Of a stretch of DNA of 64,000 nt, positions 39,601-48,370 are shown piece after piece. Within the stretch, counting starts at the first letter, position 1. Each line of letters starts with the position of its first letter. The position numbers and the translations under genes are program-made. Source of the stretch: Spirochaetia bacterium (GTDB taxonomy: Bacteria; Spirochaetota; Spirochaetia; SP-2023). The stretch spans positions 2,208,001-2,272,000 of the forward strand of contig OZ253665.1 in assembly GCA_965263295.1 (NCBI GenBank). The letters run 5' to 3'. The notes under the pieces are model-generated. The model saw only the letters and a program-made list of their open reading frames with translations, was not told the origin of the DNA and ran no database searches.

Positions 39601-40130
39601 ATGTATATTTCTCCTTGTAAGAATAATCGTTTTTCGGATTAAAAGCTTTTCGACGTCTGGCTAATTTCAGCACGACAGTGTTTGCCCATTCAAATTTTTC
39701 TGACGTAAATGCCCAGCTAAAAATCACAAGTCATTGTAAAAAAGCTGCTGGGGCCACGCAAGCTGCCAGACGGCTTGGCATTTGCCGGCGTGGCAGAAGC
39801 CACTCCGTCTATTCAGTCTCCTCAATCACCCAATCACCTGGAGGGCAAGGCAAAAAAAAGGCGGCCAGGAATAAAGCCAAAAATAAAGCAAATAATACTG
39901 AAAATAGCTTGAATCTTTAAAAAGGTGGTGACCTGCTTTTACTAAACCCAAAAAGCATTGTCGTATACCCCTAAAAGGTAATTGCAGTTCATTGCCGGAC
40001 CGCTATCCGGCCGTCAGAGTCTGGCAAATGACCTTGTCAACCCAAACCTGGCTTCTTGTTTGTAACAAAACTTGTCCGGGCCGGCCGCACAAATTTTGTG
40101 GGAAGTGCCGATGCTTCGCGCGGACAATCT

Positions 40131-40703
40131 TTAAAACCAAAAGCGAACACCTAAGTCAATTGGGCCATCAACATGGAGCCAGAGGCGCGGCGGATTGCCC
40201 AGTCCTATGCCCAGGCCAGCAATTGGTGTGAGATTCAGGTAGATCTGGAACCATTCCCACAGCCAAAAGCTCATGCCGAGGGGCATCCGTAGGCCTGCAG
40301 ATATCCCTATGCCCTTGCGGTAGCCGTAAAACGTCCCCCCGGCACCCAGGAATATATGGAGCTCAAACCATTTTGTGGCTTGTAGAGCTTTGAGCAAAAA
40401 ATCCACATTGGCATTGATGCCGTAGCCGCCAAAGCCCAAGCCGGCAATACCCGTGCTGAATAAAAAAGACGTCTGGGGCACATGCAGAGTTATGGCTGGC
40501 AAGGCGTCCGGGAAACCGGCGACAATCCCGGTATACGGTAGGAGAGCTGCCGCGCCGACCCCACCTTTAAAACCCAGGCCCCACTTGTCGCGTTGCCGCT
40601 CAAAACTTACAGTTTGTCGGCCGACCTCTACGGCAAAGAGCTGCAGGGAGGCACTCAATACAAAACATGTAGTTAAGACAATGAAGCTGCTTCTCGTCGG
40701 CAT
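40131..40703 (-). CDS. Small outer-membrane beta-barrel, DUF3996/BAPKO_0422-like
   Basis: Signal peptide; Gly/aromatic-rich strands (GLRMPLGMSF, QIYLNLTP); C-terminus LGVRFWF. Confidence 0.65.
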   Translation of the reverse strand: MPTRSSFIVLTTCFVLSASLQLFAVEVGRQTVSFERQRDKWGLGFKGGVGAAALLPYTGIVAGFPDALPAITLHVPQTSFLFSTGIAGLGFGGYGINANVDFLLKALQATKWFELHIFLGAGGTFYGYRKGIGISAGLRMPLGMSFWLWEWFQIYLNLTPIAGLGIGLGNPPRLWLHVDGPIDLGVRFWF

Positions 40704-40819
40704 CGGCGCCCGCCTCCCAACCTATATTTACGACCTATTTTATTGTGTGAAATTGTTAGCACCTGTCAATCTGGGGCATATATTCGTCGAACTGATGCCG
40801 AAAAACTGGAAGCGAAAGA

Positions 40820-42058
40820 TCAATCCCACTGCAGGGCTCCCCCCACTTGGTATTCCGTGACACGCGTTTCAAAGAAGTTTTTTTCCTTGCTCAGGTCCAT
40901 AATCTCAGACATCCAGGGGAAGGGGTTGGGCACTCCGCTAAACTCCTCGGTCAAACCGATCTGCTGTAGGCGCCGATTGGCGATGAATTTTAAATAATCT
41001 TCCATGACGGCAGCATTCATTCCCAGCACGCCTCGCGGCATGGTGTCGCGGGCGTACTGGACCTCCAGGGCCATGCCCTGCAAAATCAGGCTGGCAGCCT
41101 GTTGCTTCATTTCTTCGTCCCAGAGATCGGGATTTTCCCGTTTGATCTGATTGATCATATCAATGCCAAAATTCAAGTGCATGGACTCGTCTCGCAAGAT
41201 GTACTGGAACTGCTCCGCGGTGCCTGTCATGCGATTGCGGCGCCCCATCGACAGGATCTGGGCAAAACCGCAATAAAAAAACATGCCTTCGAGCACACAG
41301 TAATAGGCAATCAAATTGAGCAAAAGCTTGCGGTCGTTTTCTGGCGTGCCCGTGCAGAACTGCGGGTCGGAAAGGCCGGAAGTGTAGTGCAAGCCCCAGG
41401 CGGCCTTGCGGGCGACTGACGGTATCTCGTGATACATGTTAAAGACTTCGCCCTCGTCAATTCCCAGCGATTCAATCACGTATTGGTAGGCATGTGTGTG
41501 GATGGCCTCTTCAAAACTTTGACGTAGCAGATATTGGCGGCATTCTGGGTTGGTAATATGGCGATAAACGGCCAATACAAGGTTATTGGCTACAAGGGAG
41601 TCCGCGGTAGAAAAGAAGCCCAGGTTGCGTTTGACAATGCGCTGCTCGTCTTCGCTCAGATCGCCGCTCCTCCAAAGCGCTATGTCAGCTGTCATGTTAA
41701 TTTCTTGCGGCATCCAATGGTTGGCACAAGCGTCGAGATACTTTTGCCAAGCCCAGTCATATTTAAAAGGCACCAATTGATTTAAGTCTGCGCGGCAGTT
41801 AATCATGACCTTGTCATCGACCCGGACGCGTTCAAAACTGCTGGACTCGGCCAGATCGGCACAGACGTCCAGCTCGGCGAGCAAGGCTTCTGCCTTGCTC
41901 ATGCGTTGGCCGCCTCCGTCAATCCCCCGCAGCGAGGCAAAACCGGCGGCCAGTTGCTCATTGTCGAGCAAAGGCAAAATCGCGGATTCTTCTGCGGATT
42001 TTGATTTTGTAGAGATCTCGGCATGTGCCGCGTCTTTTTCTTGATCCCATTCGGACAT
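40820..42058 (-). CDS. nrdB: Class Ia ribonucleotide reductase beta subunit
   Basis: [25 protein letters not shown] (radical Tyr present), [24 protein letters not shown]. Confidence 0.96.
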
Positions 42059-42347
42059 AAGGGGAATCCTCCATATCAATTTAAAATCAGATATCTCAAG
42101 AAATCAATAATCAATATCATTATCTTGGCTCATCGTCAAAGCTTCAAAGCACGATATCAGCTGCGCTGCTCACAATCAGATGCCCTGGCCGGGGGCGACT
42201 AATTAATGTGGGGTTCTGTTGTGGATTTATTTATGGCAAATATAAATAGCTTCCACAACTCCCACGGTAAAAGTGGCGCAGGGCCGTTTAGATTGCTTAG
42301 ACTGCTTAGAATCCTTGGGTTGCTTGGGACAGCACCTTGCCGATTTG

Positions 42348-42497
42348 CTATTGACAAGCTTCGCAGTCCTGATCGTTTAACATGCAGTACTTGGCACCCT
42401 GTTTGTGCCCGCGTACGACCCGATCGGCAGCAGCGTCGATAAAATCGTCCGCCTGTTCCAGTTCAATCGCACTTTCATCCCAATTCAGCATACCCAT
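42348..42497 (-). CDS. Small ORF (49 aa) carrying the NrdA-type C-terminal redox cysteine tail
   Basis: MGMLNWDE...KYCMLNDQDCEACQ. AGGGAG RBS 9 nt before ATG 42497. Same reading frame as nrdA but separated from it by two TAA stops. Confidence 0.7.
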   Translation of the reverse strand: MGMLNWDESAIELEQADDFIDAAADRVVRGHKQGAKYCMLNDQDCEACQ

Positions 42498-42602
42498 ATT
42501 CCGTTTCTCCCTCGTACCTTTCGGTGTGTCTTTCATTTTTCGACGGTTTCGATAAAATTTGTAACTGTCTGCGCAACAATTTCCAACATTTTATTTATTC
42601 CA

Positions 42603-45032
42603 TTATTTGATAGTATTTTGCACGGCGTTAAGCCCACTGGTACTGACGGTCGATTTCTCCGTCGACGTGGCGGCCAATGCCCTCAAGTAATAGGTTGTTT
42701 TCAAGCCCCGAAGCCAAGCCATGCGATAGGTCAAATCAATTTTTTTACCGCTGGCCGCCCCCATGTAAATATTCAGCGACTGCGACTGATCAATCCATTT
42801 CTGGCGGCGTGCCGCAGCTTCGACGATCCAGCGTGGCTCCAGTTCAAAGGCACTCTGGTAACGCTGCTTCAGCTCATCTGGGATACTGGCTATGTTTTGC
42901 ACGCTGCCGTCAAAGCGCTTTAGTTCCTCAATCACGGCGGGCCGCCAAAGGCCTAACGCTTTCAGTTCATCCACCAGATAGCGATTAATTACGGTAAATT
43001 CGCCCGAAAGATTGGATTTTACATATACATTCTGAAAGGTGGGCTCAATTGACTGACTGACCCCGACAATATTTGAAATCGTGGCCGTCGGCGCAATTGT
43101 CATGACGTAGGAATTGCGCATTCCTCGGCGAACTTTTTGGCGCAAAGAATTCCAGTCCAGGCTCTGGCTGCGGTCCAAATCTAAGTAGCCTGCGCCGCGG
43201 CTTTGAGCCAGCAGCTCAATGCTGTCAATCGGCAAGATTCCCCGGTTCCACAGCGAGCCGGCAAAACTTTCATATGCCCCTCGCTCTTCGGCTAAGTTTT
43301 GCGAAGCTTCAATTGCGTAGTAGGAAATCAGCTCGGCAGAGCAGTCCGCGAACTGCACGGCCTCTTCTGAGCTGAAAGCGATGCCCATTTTGTATAGCGC
43401 GTCCTGAAAACCCATCATGCCCAGGCCGATGGGACGGTGACGCAGGTTGCTGCGGCGGGCCTTTTCGACGGCGTAATAGTTAATGTCGATGACATTATCC
43501 AGCATGCGTATCGCGGTGCGGACTGTCTGGCGCAACTTGTCGCGCTGCAGCTGGCCATTTTCGACGTGGGCCGCCAGGTTGACCGAGCCCAGATTGCAAA
43601 CCGCAATTTCCTCTTCATTGGTGTTCAATGTGATTTCGGTACAGAGGTTTGACGAGTGTACCTGGCCGACGTGTTGCTGTGGCGAGCGCAGGTTGCAAGG
43701 GTCCTTGAAAGTTATCCACGGGTGCCCGGTCTCAAACAGCATGGACAGGATTTTCCGCCAGAGGGTTACGGCTTCCAGTTTTTTGTGGCGCAGCTGGCCG
43801 CTGGCTGCCAGCTGTTCGTATTCGGCGTAGCGCTGTTCAAATTTTTGGCCATACAGGTCGTGCAGGTCTCGGACGTCGGATGGCGAGAATAGGAGCCAGG
43901 GCCCGTTTTCCTGCACGCGCTTGACCAGCAGGTCAGGCACCCAAATGGCGGTATTCATGTCGTGGGTGCGCCGGCGGTCGTCTCCCGTGTTTTTGCGCAA
44001 CTCGACAAACTCTTCGATATCCAAGTGCCAAGCTTCCAGATAAGCGCATACGGCCCCCTTGCGCTTGCCCCCCTGATTGACGGCCACCGCGGTATCATTG
44101 ACCACTTTCAAAAATGGCACCACACCTTGACTTTTGCCATTGGTACCCTTGATATGCGAGCCCATGGCCCGCACGGGAGTCCAGTCGTTGCCCAGACCCC
44201 CGGCCCATTTGGAAAGCATGGCGTTGTCGTGGATGGCATTAAAAATGCCGTCCAGGTCGTCCGGGACCGTCGTCAAATAGCAGGAAGAAAGCTGCGGGCG
44301 CAGGGTGCCGGAGTTAAACAGGGTCGGCGTGGAGCTCATGTAATCAAAGCTGGAGATCAGGCGATAAAACTCGATGGCCCGTTCGGTCGGTTGCGCCTCT
44401 TGCAAGGCCAGACCCATGGCGACGCGCATGAAAAAGATTTGCGGCAGCTCCAGGCGAACGCCCTCCCTGTGGAGAAAGTAACGGTCATACAAGGTCTGCA
44501 GGCCTAAGTATTGGAACTGTAAGTCGCGTTTGGGTTCCAGAGCGGCGGCCAGGGCCTGCAAATTGAAACGTCGGGCCAATTCAGGGCTCAGGAGTTCCAT
44601 TTCAATCCCTCTGGGAACATAGTCGAGAAAAACCTGGCGGTAAACTTCGGCGAGTTTTTCCTTGTCTGAGAGGACAAGGTGCTGAATGCCATAGGCTTTA
44701 GTCATGTCCTCGGCAAACAGCTTGTGTAGCAAAAGGCGCGCCGTGACGTAGCTGTAATTGGGTTCCTGTTCAACCAGGGTGCGGCTGCTGATCAGCAGGG
44801 CGGTGTGCAATTCTGACTCGGGTATCCCCGTGTAAAGACTGCGTAATGTCTCGCGTAGGACCTGTTGCCCATCTACCCCGGCCAGCCCCTGTAGCGCGTA
44901 GTCGACAGTGTGCTGCAGAAAATCAAAATCCAAAGGCTGTTCCTGCGAGCCAGAACCATCCGGCCGGGCTACTTTGACTAAAATTTTACTCGCAGCTTCG
45001 CGCAACTCATCGACAGGCATAATGTTCCCCAT
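42603..45032 (-). CDS. nrdA: Class Ia ribonucleotide reductase alpha subunit, lacking the C-terminal Cys tail
   Basis: STPTLFNSG, QLSSCYL, SNLCTEI, VCNLGS, IAPTATIS, WIDQSQSLN, KTTYYLR. Ends ...GLNAVQNTIK. Confidence 0.96.
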   Translation of the reverse strand: MGNIMPVDELREAASKILVKVARPDGSGSQEQPLDFDFLQHTVDYALQGLAGVDGQQVLRETLRSLYTGIPESELHTALLISSRTLVEQEPNYSYVTARLLLHKLFAEDMTKAYGIQHLVLSDKEKLAEVYRQVFLDYVPRGIEMELLSPELARRFNLQALAAALEPKRDLQFQYLGLQTLYDRYFLHREGVRLELPQIFFMRVAMGLALQEAQPTERAIEFYRLISSFDYMSSTPTLFNSGTLRPQLSSCYLTTVPDDLDGIFNAIHDNAMLSKWAGGLGNDWTPVRAMGSHIKGTNGKSQGVVPFLKVVNDTAVAVNQGGKRKGAVCAYLEAWHLDIEEFVELRKNTGDDRRRTHDMNTAIWVPDLLVKRVQENGPWLLFSPSDVRDLHDLYGQKFEQRYAEYEQLAASGQLRHKKLEAVTLWRKILSMLFETGHPWITFKDPCNLRSPQQHVGQVHSSNLCTEITLNTNEEEIAVCNLGSVNLAAHVENGQLQRDKLRQTVRTAIRMLDNVIDINYYAVEKARRSNLRHRPIGLGMMGFQDALYKMGIAFSSEEAVQFADCSAELISYYAIEASQNLAEERGAYESFAGSLWNRGILPIDSIELLAQSRGAGYLDLDRSQSLDWNSLRQKVRRGMRNSYVMTIAPTATISNIVGVSQSIEPTFQNVYVKSNLSGEFTVINRYLVDELKALGLWRPAVIEELKRFDGSVQNIASIPDELKQRYQSAFELEPRWIVEAAARRQKWIDQSQSLNIYMGAASGKKIDLTYRMAWLRGLKTTYYLRALAATSTEKSTVSTSGLNAVQNTIK

Positions 45033-45184
45033 TTATAGACCATGTATAGACCCTGTTCCCGTCCGGGACTCTATGTAAAGTAGAGGTATGGTTTTTGACT
45101 CGTAGGCCGTGCATTGGGCCGCATTGGCTATTTAACGGCTATTTAACTTTTGATGTGAAACTTAAGTATCCTTCAAAAACGTAT

Positions 45185-45243
45185 ACCACAATATATTGTT
45201 ATGTTAAGTAAAAATGTGGGCCAAACAACACAATATATTGATT
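45185..45243 (-). promoter_or_regulatory. Two NrdR boxes upstream of nrdA
   Basis: CACAATATATTG core at 45187 and 45229, 42 bp apart, matching the NrdR consensus acaCwAtATaTwGtg. Confidence 0.85.
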
Positions 45244-45673
45244 AAGCTATCATAAGTGCCTGGGCTAAACTGTCAAGTCGAAGGACGGGTGAAAGGGTCG
45301 GGAAGTGGCAGGGAAAAGATTAGAAAAAATGGTATGACAAGTAATCAAAGTATATGTGTCGTATATTTTTACAGTTAAGGGTGTGCGCCCGTTTAGATTC
45401 CAGGATGCAGGCTGAATATACCGGCCAAAGTAAAAATAATTTCCTTCAAATATATTGATAATATTCTAAATTTAAAATTTTAATTGAAAATTTAAGCAGA
45501 TTCTAAGTATTTAGCCTGGCAAAACCGTGCTCAAAAAATTGCGTATTTTGTCCCATTAGGACTGTCAAAAAGCAAAAACCGTGCTACAATGTGTCTTGCG
45601 GCCTTCTTCGGATGATTCCGAGACTTCGGAGGCAGTTTATTAAATAAGAATTTAAAAATTAAGGAAACATATA

Positions 45674-48370
45674 ATGAAAAACTACGTTTTTTGTTTTGGC
45701 GGAAAAAATACCGCTGGCAGGGCCTCTCAAAGACTCTTGCTGGGAGGCAAGGGCGCCAATCTGGCGGAAATGGCCAGAGAGGGTATTCCCGTTCCCCCCG
45801 GCTTCACCATCAGCACCGAAGCTTGTCGCTATTACTACGAAAACGAACGACAATTCCCCGCTTCCTTTCAGGAAGCTGTTTTGCAGGCTCTGGAAGAATT
45901 GGAGGATTTCACCGCCAAGGGCTTCGGAGATCGACACAATCCTTTGCTGGTCTCCGTGCGTTCAGGGAGTAGCGTGTCGATGCCGGGCATGATGGACACC
46001 ATCCTGAATCTGGGGATCAACGATGCCGTGGTCGAGGGCTTGGCGCAAAAGACCCAAAACGACTGGTTTGCCTACGATTGTTACCGGCGCTTTATTCAGA
46101 TGTATGCCGACGTGGTGCTGAACGTGAAAAAGAAGAAATTTGAGCGCATCATTGACGAGATCAAAGAGTCTCGCGGCATTACGCAGGACAATCAAATGGC
46201 CGTTGAAGATTTGCACGGTCTGATACGCCGCTTTAAAGAATGTGTTTTGGAGGCCACCGGAGCTTCTTTCCCGCAGGACCCGCGGGAGCAGCTCTGGATG
46301 GCCGTGCGGGCCGTGTTTGAGTCTTGGATGAACGAGCGGTCTGTGTTTTACCGCCAGGTCAACCATATTGACCACAAGCTGGGAACGGCGGTCAACGTGC
46401 AATCCATGGTATTTGGCAACATGGGCGACCGCTCGGCGACGGGAGTGGCCTTTACGCGCAATCCTTCGACGGGGGAAAAAAAGTATTACGGCGAGTACCT
46501 GATCAATGCCCAGGGAGAGGATGTGGTGGCGGGTATCCGAACGCCCCAGCCCATTGTGGGCGGGCCCGAGTCCTTGCAATGCAAAATGCCCAAGACGTAC
46601 GACCAGCTGCGACAGGTGTTTGAGCAGCTGGAGTACCATTACAAGGACGTTCAGGACATCGAATTTACGGTCGAAGAAGAGAAATTGTGGATACTCCAGA
46701 CGCGCAACGCCAAACGCACGGCCGCGGCGGCAGTCAAGGTGGCCTACGACATGGTGGAAGAGAAAAAAATGACGGCCGCAGAGGCCATCATGAAGATTGA
46801 TGCATCGTCGGTGAACCAGCTGCTGCATCCCCAGCTGGACCCCGCTGAGGAGAGAAAAATATTGGGGAAAGGGTTGCCCGCTTCTCCGGGAGCGGCTTCG
46901 GGGAAGGTGGCGTTTTCTTATGCCAAGGTAATGGAGTTCTCCCAGGAGCATGAGAAATCTATCTTGGTGCGTGTGGAGACCAGTCCTGAAGACGTGCAAG
47001 GCATTTACAATTCCGCGGGGATCTTAACAGCGCGCGGGGGCATGACGTCCCACGCTGCGGTGGTGGCCAGAGGCGCCGGCAAGCCCTGCGTCAGCGGCGT
47101 GCTGGCGCTGGACATACACGAAGAGAAGGGACATTGCCGGCTGGGGGAAAAAGTCTTGCGTGAAGGGGACTTCCTGACCATTGACGGCACTTTGGGAGAT
47201 GTCATTGACGGGGTACATCCCACGATTGAGGCGGTTCTTTCTAAGGAATTTGAGGCGGTTTTAAGATGGGCGGACGCCATTCGCTCGCTTGAAGTGCGCG
47301 CCAATGCCGAGACATACGTGGACGCCAAAAAAGCTTTGGATTTTGGTGCGGAGGGCATTGGCCTGTGCCGCACCGAGCACATGTTTTTTGCCGAAGATCG
47401 CATCAATTGGGTGCGGGAGATGATTTTGGCCGAGGACGCCGAACAGCGACAAAAAGCCCTGGACAAACTGCTCCCTGTACAACAGGGGGACTTTGAGAAG
47501 CTGTTTGAACTCATGGGCGATAAGCCAGTGACCATTCGTCTTCTGGATCCGCCCCTGCATGAGTTTCTTCCCCACACGAAAGAAGAAATGGAAGCCTTGG
47601 CCAAAAGTTCCGCCTACTCTGTGGAATACATTTGCCAAAGGGCGGCCGTTCTGGAGGAAAGAAACCCCATGTTGGGGCATCGGGGCTGCCGCTTGGCCAT
47701 CTCTTATCCTGAGATATATACCATGCAGATGGAAGCCATTTTCAACGCCGCCTACGAAAACTACAAGAAGACGGGCAAGGATATCCGCCTTGAGGTCATG
47801 ATTCCCCTCGTGGGCACGGTCAGCGAAGTGGATTACATCCGCCAGAGTCTGGAAACTTTGCGCAGCGGAAAGGAAGAAGAGTTTCGTTACGAGTTCAGAC
47901 ACTCGTGGGGTTCGATGATAGAGGTGCCCAGGGCCGTGATCCGCGCGCGCGAGATCGCCCAGAGCCTGGACTTTTTCAGCTTTGGCACCAACGATCTGAC
48001 CCAAATGGTTTACGGACTCTCCAGAGACGACGCCGGTTTTTTCCTAGAAGAATACATACAGAAGGATATCTACGACTTTGACCCGTTTTTCCGGTTGGAC
48101 CAAAAAGGCGTGGGCGAGTTGATCAATTTGGGCGTGCGCCGGGGACGCGAGGGCAATCCCAACTTGAAACTGGGCATTTGCGGCGAACACGGCGGGCAAC
48201 CGGATTCTATCGATTTCTTTCATCGGGCGGGTCTGGACTATGTCTCCTGCTCGCCCTATCGAATACCTGTGGCCAGAATAGCCGCCGCTCAGGCGAAGTT
48301 GAGAAGTGATGCCGCTTGTGACGGGCCAAGAGATGGCCAAGGGGCGGTCAAGGGATCTAAAGCGGGGTAA
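45674..48370 (+). CDS. ppdK: Pyruvate, phosphate dikinase
   Basis: LLGGKGANLAEM, PLLVSVRSG, GGMTSHAAVVAR (phospho-His), GIGLCRTEHMF, GTNDLTQ, GICGEHGG. Confidence 0.98.
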   Translation: MKNYVFCFGGKNTAGRASQRLLLGGKGANLAEMAREGIPVPPGFTISTEACRYYYENERQFPASFQEAVLQALEELEDFTAKGFGDRHNPLLVSVRSGSSVSMPGMMDTILNLGINDAVVEGLAQKTQNDWFAYDCYRRFIQMYADVVLNVKKKKFERIIDEIKESRGITQDNQMAVEDLHGLIRRFKECVLEATGASFPQDPREQLWMAVRAVFESWMNERSVFYRQVNHIDHKLGTAVNVQSMVFGNMGDRSATGVAFTRNPSTGEKKYYGEYLINAQGEDVVAGIRTPQPIVGGPESLQCKMPKTYDQLRQVFEQLEYHYKDVQDIEFTVEEEKLWILQTRNAKRTAAAAVKVAYDMVEEKKMTAAEAIMKIDASSVNQLLHPQLDPAEERKILGKGLPASPGAASGKVAFSYAKVMEFSQEHEKSILVRVETSPEDVQGIYNSAGILTARGGMTSHAAVVARGAGKPCVSGVLALDIHEEKGHCRLGEKVLREGDFLTIDGTLGDVIDGVHPTIEAVLSKEFEAVLRWADAIRSLEVRANAETYVDAKKALDFGAEGIGLCRTEHMFFAEDRINWVREMILAEDAEQRQKALDKLLPVQQGDFEKLFELMGDKPVTIRLLDPPLHEFLPHTKEEMEALAKSSAYSVEYICQRAAVLEERNPMLGHRGCRLAISYPEIYTMQMEAIFNAAYENYKKTGKDIRLEVMIPLVGTVSEVDYIRQSLETLRSGKEEEFRYEFRHSWGSMIEVPRAVIRAREIAQSLDFFSFGTNDLTQMVYGLSRDDAGFFLEEYIQKDIYDFDPFFRLDQKGVGELINLGVRRGREGNPNLKLGICGEHGGQPDSIDFFHRAGLDYVSCSPYRIPVARIAAAQAKLRSDAACDGPRDGQGAVKGSKAG

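Follow-up and report, generated by a model that had tools for sequence, protein, structure and literature searches.

The window analysed here, a stretch of 64,000 nucleotides (contig OZ253665.1, positions 2,208,001 to 2,272,000) from a Spirochaetia bacterium, carries a class Ia ribonucleotide reductase (RNR) whose nrdA gene stops before the C-terminal cysteine tail, and a separate gene of 49 codons close behind it encodes a peptide with the features of that tail. Our preferred reading, to which we assign a probability of roughly 0.7, is a three-part RNR: the redox tail would be a free peptide that re-reduces NrdA in trans and is docked by a motif near its own N-terminus. From the comparison of sequences we infer the translation of the peptide, its redox shuttling in trans and its docking site. 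Split RNRs are already known; what appears new is the class I tail as a free peptide in this organism, together with a docking motif on free tails that resembles the one of the beta subunit.

The NrdA of the window ends in ...TTYYLRALAATSTEKSTVSTSGLNAVQNTIK; its stop lies 27 residues past the YY pair (Y781/Y782), with no cysteine between, and 4 residues past the conserved LNAV motif. The claim of an earlier note, made from the letters alone, that NrdA keeps its catalytic elements but has no Cys after the YY pair was confirmed by reading of the open reading frame (ORF) and by an alignment of 33 NrdA rows, in which C251, N462, C464, E466, C479, Y781 and Y782 are all invariant. The roles of these catalytic residues (active-site Cys, Asn/Glu, YY radical-transfer pair) are presumably those of their counterparts in the E. 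coli numbering, by which they were assigned. Pfam recognizes the RNR barrel (PF02867, E 8.9e-193) and the all-alpha domain (PF00317, E 1.5e-23). The nearest solved protein is the P. aeruginosa NrdA (5IM3, 1222.7 bits), residues 19-805 of the query being aligned to 148-928 of the chain, and the identity with gammaproteobacterial NrdA is 60-65%. The assignment to the Pseudomonas-type NrdA, also put forward in that note, fits this best solved relative as well as the ending C-x6-C-E-A-C-Q of the fused relatives. The Cys pair on the same polypeptide, a criterion for class Ia alpha subunits, is absent here and in the other members of the genus sample described below. No ATP-cone was found in NrdA by Pfam at E<=0.01, and since the alignment with 5IM3 begins only at residue 148, the first ATP-cone of the Pseudomonas-type relatives is absent (window 44500-45032, minus strand); with this cone missing, the feedback of deoxyadenosine triphosphate (dATP) on the overall activity may be absent or different.

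The peptide reads MGMLNWDES...YCMLNDQDCEACQ and contains three cysteines in its 49 residues, arranged in the tail C38-x6-C45-x2-C48-Q. It had been described as an ORF 105 nt downstream of nrdA, with its own AGGGAG and in the nrdA frame behind two TAA stops, and every part of this description holds: in-frame reading past nrdA gives TAA (42605-42603), W N K, TAA (42593-42591), 31 codons and then MGMLNWDESAIELEQADDFIDAAADRVVRGHKQGAKYCMLNDQDCEACQ with its stop, and the Shine-Dalgarno (SD) sequence AGGGAG is found at 42512-42507, 9 nt 5' of the peptide ATG. A 62-codon version could start at an upstream ATG at 42536. Since the counterpart of this longer version is closed by a stop in a genus-mate (G002), the proximal ATG is the conserved start. 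The spacer contains no terminator-like site on the minus strand. Pfam has no family for the peptide; it is already a called protein in the protein collection, where a word-index search with the 49 residues matched only the window's own protein. About 15 nt of the spacer (CGAAAAATGAAAGAC; window 42525-42540, minus strand) are common to the window's genome and G002, and the remaining spacer differs. In one public sequencing run (X1) a second, low-depth contig matching 42345-42750 has 276 letters between the nrdA TTYY region and the end of the peptide gene, compared with 345 in the window; it probably comes from a relative, strain or species, in which the spacer is shorter.

In order to see whether the arrangement is kept in relatives, a check that the earlier note had called for, four genomes of the genus were compared: G000, a single contig of 2,407,850 bases that holds the window, and G001 to G003. 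All four have a tail-less nrdA and a separate peptide gene. NrdA ends 4-6 residues past LNAV across the genus, slightly earlier in G003, and the peptides start with M(x)ML[ND]WD and finish with C-x-L-x-D-x-DCEACQ. Between the nrdA stop and the ATG of ML.WD there are 111, 117, 133 and 85 nt in the four genomes, respectively, and GGAG or GAGG stands 8-9 nt ahead of an ATG in each of them; split, start and SD sequence are all conserved. The four-way peptide alignment has 16 invariant columns, including W, DF and C-L-D-DCEACQ. By Nei-Gojobori counting over the four genomes, the proportion of nonsynonymous differences (pN) in the peptide gene is 0.20-0.30 against a synonymous proportion (pS) of 0.71-1.04, where synonymous sites are saturated; the sole unsaturated pair gives a ratio of nonsynonymous to synonymous rates (dN/dS) of 0.17, and the last 320 nrdA codons, taken for comparison, give a pN of 0.09-0.15. 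Judged from these substitution counts, the peptide is evolving under purifying selection. The peptide gene immediately follows nrdA also in the two genomes in which nrdB has been relocated, to a place 29 kb off in G002 and to another contig in G003. G001, G002 (a single contig) and G003 each have one match to PF02867, which is the tail-less nrdA, and no match to NrdD (PF13597) was obtained in these three genomes; in G000 the single PF02867 match is accompanied by a class III enzyme. The split in four of four genomes, the selection on the peptide and the tail-less NrdA as the sole RNR catalytic subunit found in G001-G003 thus support the three-component enzyme with a free peptide that the earlier note had suggested.

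These results bear on two other explanations. Programmed recoding (readthrough, frameshifting or bypassing) could in principle join nrdA and the tail into one polypeptide, and the tail ORF does lie in the nrdA frame in G000 and G002. There are, however, two TAA stops between them in G000 and three stops (TAA, TAG, TGA) in G002, while in G001 and G003 the peptide is in a different frame from nrdA. Moreover, the spacers of 85-133 nt carry an SD sequence and ATG of their own in each species, and Rfam gave no match over 40000-46000. The translational bypassing or readthrough that the earlier note had kept as its alternative is therefore rejected, and we consider recoding in general very improbable. 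The second explanation takes the small ORF for what is left of an nrdA that broke recently and is decaying, or for a mistake in sequencing or assembly; it would be allowed if a single genome were viewed alone. Against it stand the split in four species with saturated synonymous sites at a peptide pN of 0.20-0.30, the five further family members of 44-50 aa from metagenomes that are described below, and the tail-less NrdA as the only RNR catalytic subunit detected in three genomes. The region 42480-42620, for which a check against reads had been advised, is covered by contigs from four public runs of two studies that carry 42200-43000 with 0 differences, although some of these runs may be the source of the assembly. 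The case in which all close relatives are fused and the gene here is a recent pseudogene is contradicted by the split genus-mates and by the selection on the peptide. With the split in all four genomes and a low peptide pN against saturated pS, we regard an error, a recent decay or a recoding mechanism common to all four as practically ruled out.

Outside the genus the tail is mostly fused. In the sister family, G004 has a fused tail in a 978-aa frame ending in ..DPDCESCQ; in G005 the tail frame is just 55 aa, with no more than 170 bases between the match and the edge of the retrieved locus. In a class sample of 301 genomes the tail matches belong to frames of 850-1100 aa, this genus and genus g74 being the exceptions; in a phylum sample of 401 genomes five had a match, namely G000 with the free peptide and four fused ones. 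A scan of genome contigs with the four-row peptide alignment as query returned 38 loci: 33 fused (904-1074 aa, many phyla), the three split genus-mates and two in G001. The latter are two identical open frames of 19 codons that end in HQQDAKSCLLSDPDCEACQ, are preceded by TAG and have no start codon; they stand on two contigs and are probably remnants within a repeated element. Among the 80 metagenome loci listed (of 115 relatives) 77 were fused and three were cut by contig ends, and neither a free peptide nor any context of the short proteins P0004-P0008 was found among them. These proteins came from a profile search of 1.84 billion representative proteins, which gave eight matches at E<=1e-3, all of 43-50 aa. 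Five of them (P0004-P0008, 44-50 aa) are new lineages, in clusters of 1-3 members, and one match is a hypothetical protein from a metagenome-assembled genome labelled Spirochaetota. In viral contigs 52 pattern matches were reduced to six loci, five of them fused phage NrdA (two being one contig read both ways) and one spurious; no free peptide was found there with the pattern used.

The gammaproteobacterial NrdA proteins run ..ATNAEKSTIHDGALNAVK...PKACSINDPDCEACQ to their stop, and this layout of linker and tail places the point of fission at the start of the variable linker. We envisage that an ancestral Pseudomonas-type (NrdAz-like) nrdA was split by gene fission within the flexible linker past LNAV, so that the 809-aa body and the 43-50-aa redox tail would now be two genes, co-transcribed but separately translated. 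Thioredoxin or glutaredoxin would reduce the C-terminal cysteines of the peptide, and the reduced peptide would then enter the NrdA active site and re-reduce the C251/C479 disulfide formed in each turnover; thioredoxin and glutaredoxin genes are present, with two matches each. To our knowledge, in all other class I enzymes this re-reduction is done by a tethered tail. Having lost the covalent tether, the peptide would need a docking element of its own, for which the LNWDE-type motif is the candidate, and the peptide would then sit in a beta-tail cleft of whichever alpha protomer is undergoing re-reduction. In yeast R1 the tail is said to act between monomers.

The candidate docking motif was recognized by its likeness to the end of the beta subunit. 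The beta C-termini encoded beside the nrdA genes of relatives have the form ..EYQxGG(A/T)L-x-W with 0-5 further residues, mostly acidic, in 31 of 31 cases (from 38 loci, seven of which had no NrdB C-terminus within reach), for example ..LNWDE, ..LSWD and ..LNWEEES. The NrdB of the window ends in ..GGALQWD, and the four NrdB proteins of the genus end in ..LQWD or ..LKWD. The free peptides begin with MLNWDE, MLDWDN, MLDWDD, EFNWDE, VLDWDE, MPDWNN, MISWDD or KPNWDD. By reading of the sequences, a hydrophobic-x-W-acidic motif stands near their start, with W in 12/12 and W[DE] in 11/12, whereas among 113 distinct fused tails W[DE] occurs in none and any W in six. According to PMC11903788, beta is anchored through its C-terminal end in a cleft of alpha, and TrxA favours the alpha side that is not engaged in radical transfer. 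Since the beta C-terminus is known to tether beta on alpha, we infer that the N-terminal LNWDE motif docks the free peptide onto alpha, where this copy of the beta docking motif would replace the lost covalent tether.

In structure prediction the complex of NrdA with the peptide was graded 'weak support', with scores of 0.47, 0.50 and 0.21 (median 0.47) and 0.00 for the best of three controls. The mark for this grade was reached by 116/157 solved complexes and 2/215 mismatched pairs; at scores of <=0.60 it was reached by 18/157 solved complexes and by both of the mismatched pairs. At least 46% of the contacts are common to the runs, with a predicted local distance difference test score (pLDDT) of 45-50 for the partner, and the pass may owe something to a resemblance to solved complexes of alpha with the beta tail. 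A read-through fold (894 aa, X at both TAA, 33-row alignment) had a mean pLDDT of 74.9, with all of residues 782-894 below 50; it contains a low-confidence helix at 858-875 and gives no information on docking. The free peptide is modelled as disordered (pLDDT 28-38).

Several points weigh against the free redox tail docked by its own motif. The motif match is short and was spotted post hoc. It is C-terminal in NrdB but N-terminal or internal in the peptide, and some NrdB proteins extend up to five residues past the W. Bound in the beta-tail cleft, the peptide would be a competitor of NrdB and hence could inhibit rather than help. Docking was settled neither by the complex prediction nor by the read-through fold. 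None of the public runs listed is recorded as RNA, which counts neither for nor against expression of the peptide. In addition, the organisms may be host-associated, in which case salvage of nucleotides might make RNR less necessary.

The possible competition with NrdB leads to the alternative that the peptide is expressed but mainly regulatory: it would mimic NrdB, the alpha tail or both and compete for NrdA, and the re-reduction would be left to a redoxin or a small thiol. Small disordered RNR inhibitors are present in yeast, which is a parallel for such a role. The N-terminal motif of the peptide equals the beta docking motif, which makes competition with NrdB plausible, and free peptides are carried by genus g74 and by a G001 prophage although the g74 NrdA retains its tail. 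Thus a free peptide is not always a replacement for the tail. As described in PMC4520616, moreover, NrdJa of the split class II enzyme has by itself a small activity supported by dithiothreitol. On the other hand, the peptide retains all three tail cysteines and their DPDCEACQ context exactly as fused tails do, which a pure docking competitor would not need, and its gene occupies the former tail position in all four genomes. Furthermore, the tail cysteines of class I enzymes are described as electron acceptors from redoxins in PMC5704485 and PMC11903788. On balance we hold a mainly regulatory peptide to be unlikely.

The three-part arrangement that we favour can be compared with several known systems. 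The fused Pseudomonas-type (NrdAz) alpha subunits, such as 5IM3, have the same catalytic body and the same tail ending C-x6-C-E-A-C-Q; here, in contrast, the tail has a gene of its own and bears in addition an LxWD motif near its N-terminus, and the first ATP-cone is missing. In the split class II enzyme NrdJa/NrdJb of Pseudomonas aeruginosa, NrdJb provides thiol-disulfide exchange for NrdJa (PMC4520616). The two systems are alike in that body and thiol-exchange module are separate polypeptides of adjacent genes, but NrdJa/NrdJb is a class II, B12-dependent enzyme with a folded NrdJb containing a zinc finger, while here we have a class I enzyme with NrdB and a peptide of 43-50 residues. In phage Aeh1 a class Ia nrdA is likewise in two genes, NrdA-a and NrdA-b, after fragmentation by the mobile endonuclease mobE, and the new terminal sequences help reassembly (both according to PMC3045599). 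Aeh1, however, yields two large fragments, whereas here only the tail is detached and no mobile gene stands between the two genes. Class I RNRs carry the double-cysteine tail on alpha 'almost exclusively' in the wording of PMC9669993, and the CX2C motif is called indispensable for regenerating R1 in PMC6382339. A full-text literature search, supplements aside, found no paper on a class I enzyme whose alpha tail has its own gene. With a free, titratable tail peptide of about 45 residues, which could be added, omitted, mutated or labelled, re-reduction and catalysis would become open to separate study, and such a peptide bears on how the disordered alpha tail and the beta tail share access to the active site.

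Free tail-like peptides were also seen elsewhere. In genus g74 (G110 and G165) NrdA is still fused, in frames of 852 and 864 aa, and its NrdB ends in ..LDWD or ..LDWG. Both genomes have in addition a free 47-aa ORF reading ME.TE.K.K.VNLIK.WEDWD...KKLCLIEDPDCEACQ (locus L025, 1429-1572, in G165; locus L027, 1411-1554, in G110), which is syntenic between them, far from nrdA and without nrd neighbours. The g74 peptide and the fused tails of its genus-mates have IEDPDCEACQ in common, which suggests that this free peptide arose separately. Two further short-frame tail matches in the class sample are in G149 and G219. In G001 a Mu-like prophage encodes a 41-aa ORF, MLNWESEE...CPLGDPDCEACQ, 12 nt past a gam-like gene (contig C4; locus L014, 4038-4163), and a second copy is found in locus L015; the region has terminase, portal and Mu Gam-like genes by PHROGs. 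By its sequence the 41-aa ORF is a paralogue of the free tail peptide, and the prophage copy possibly raises the deoxynucleotide (dNTP) supply of the host during replication. One may speculate that the free tails are functional chimeras of an L-x-W-D/E plug and recharging cysteines, with the beta tail and the peptide alternating on the alpha2 halves; such a portable module would have arisen at least twice in spirochaetes, as a replacement here and as an extra copy in g74, and would have a prophage copy too. We offer this wider picture tentatively and consider it possible but doubtful.

Table 1. Positions in the window of the RNR genes and of the associated sites.
Feature	Position	Strand	Remarks
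Free redox-tail peptide gene (candidate), 49 aa	42348..42497	minus	LNWDE near N-terminus, central DDF, C-terminal Cys triad
Spacer from nrdA stop to peptide ATG, 105 nt	42498..42602	minus	contains second in-frame TAA and SD AGGGAG
nrdA, class Ia RNR alpha subunit, 809 aa	42603..45032	minus	without C-terminal cysteine tail; Pfam, alignment, 5IM3 match
nrdB, RNR beta subunit	40820..42079	minus	PF00268, E 1.7e-89; 268 nt downstream of peptide gene
Two NrdR-box-like palindromes, ACAATATATTGTG-like	45187-45200 and 45229-45242, 42 bp apart		between promoter-like site and nrdA
Sigma-70-like promoter TTGACA-16-TATGAT, 11/12	45249..45276	minus	upstream of nrdA; consensus match only

The intact nrdB and the two NrdR boxes of the earlier note were recovered as well, nrdB through its Pfam match and the boxes as palindromes (Table 1), and an NrdR gene is present in the genome (TIGR00244, 151 bits, cut-off 124.65). 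With what we take to be the NrdR box consensus, five matches were counted in the window against 1.14 expected, four of the five being the two palindromes on both strands. The NrdR gene, the two palindromes and the strong promoter-like site point to a regulated operon.

The class III RNR of the window's genome also looks split. Its 589-aa NrdD ORF ends in ..CPKCDAELLIEYSQRRS (G000, contig C1, 1984046-1985856; locus L085, 1369-3138), and 2 bases past it there is a 57-aa ORF, with a start of its own, in which the glycyl-radical-like motif TRVMGYHRPY is found (L085, 3141-3314). A query with the glycyl-radical piece found nothing in G001-G003. In 24 other genomes of the class this piece is mostly in frames of 77-226 aa; three have it in frames of 374, 510 and 727 aa. 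In G010 (locus L094) a TRIVGYYR piece lies on a 159-aa ORF, fused to a glutaredoxin-like part with CPYC, between nrdD and an activase-like gene.

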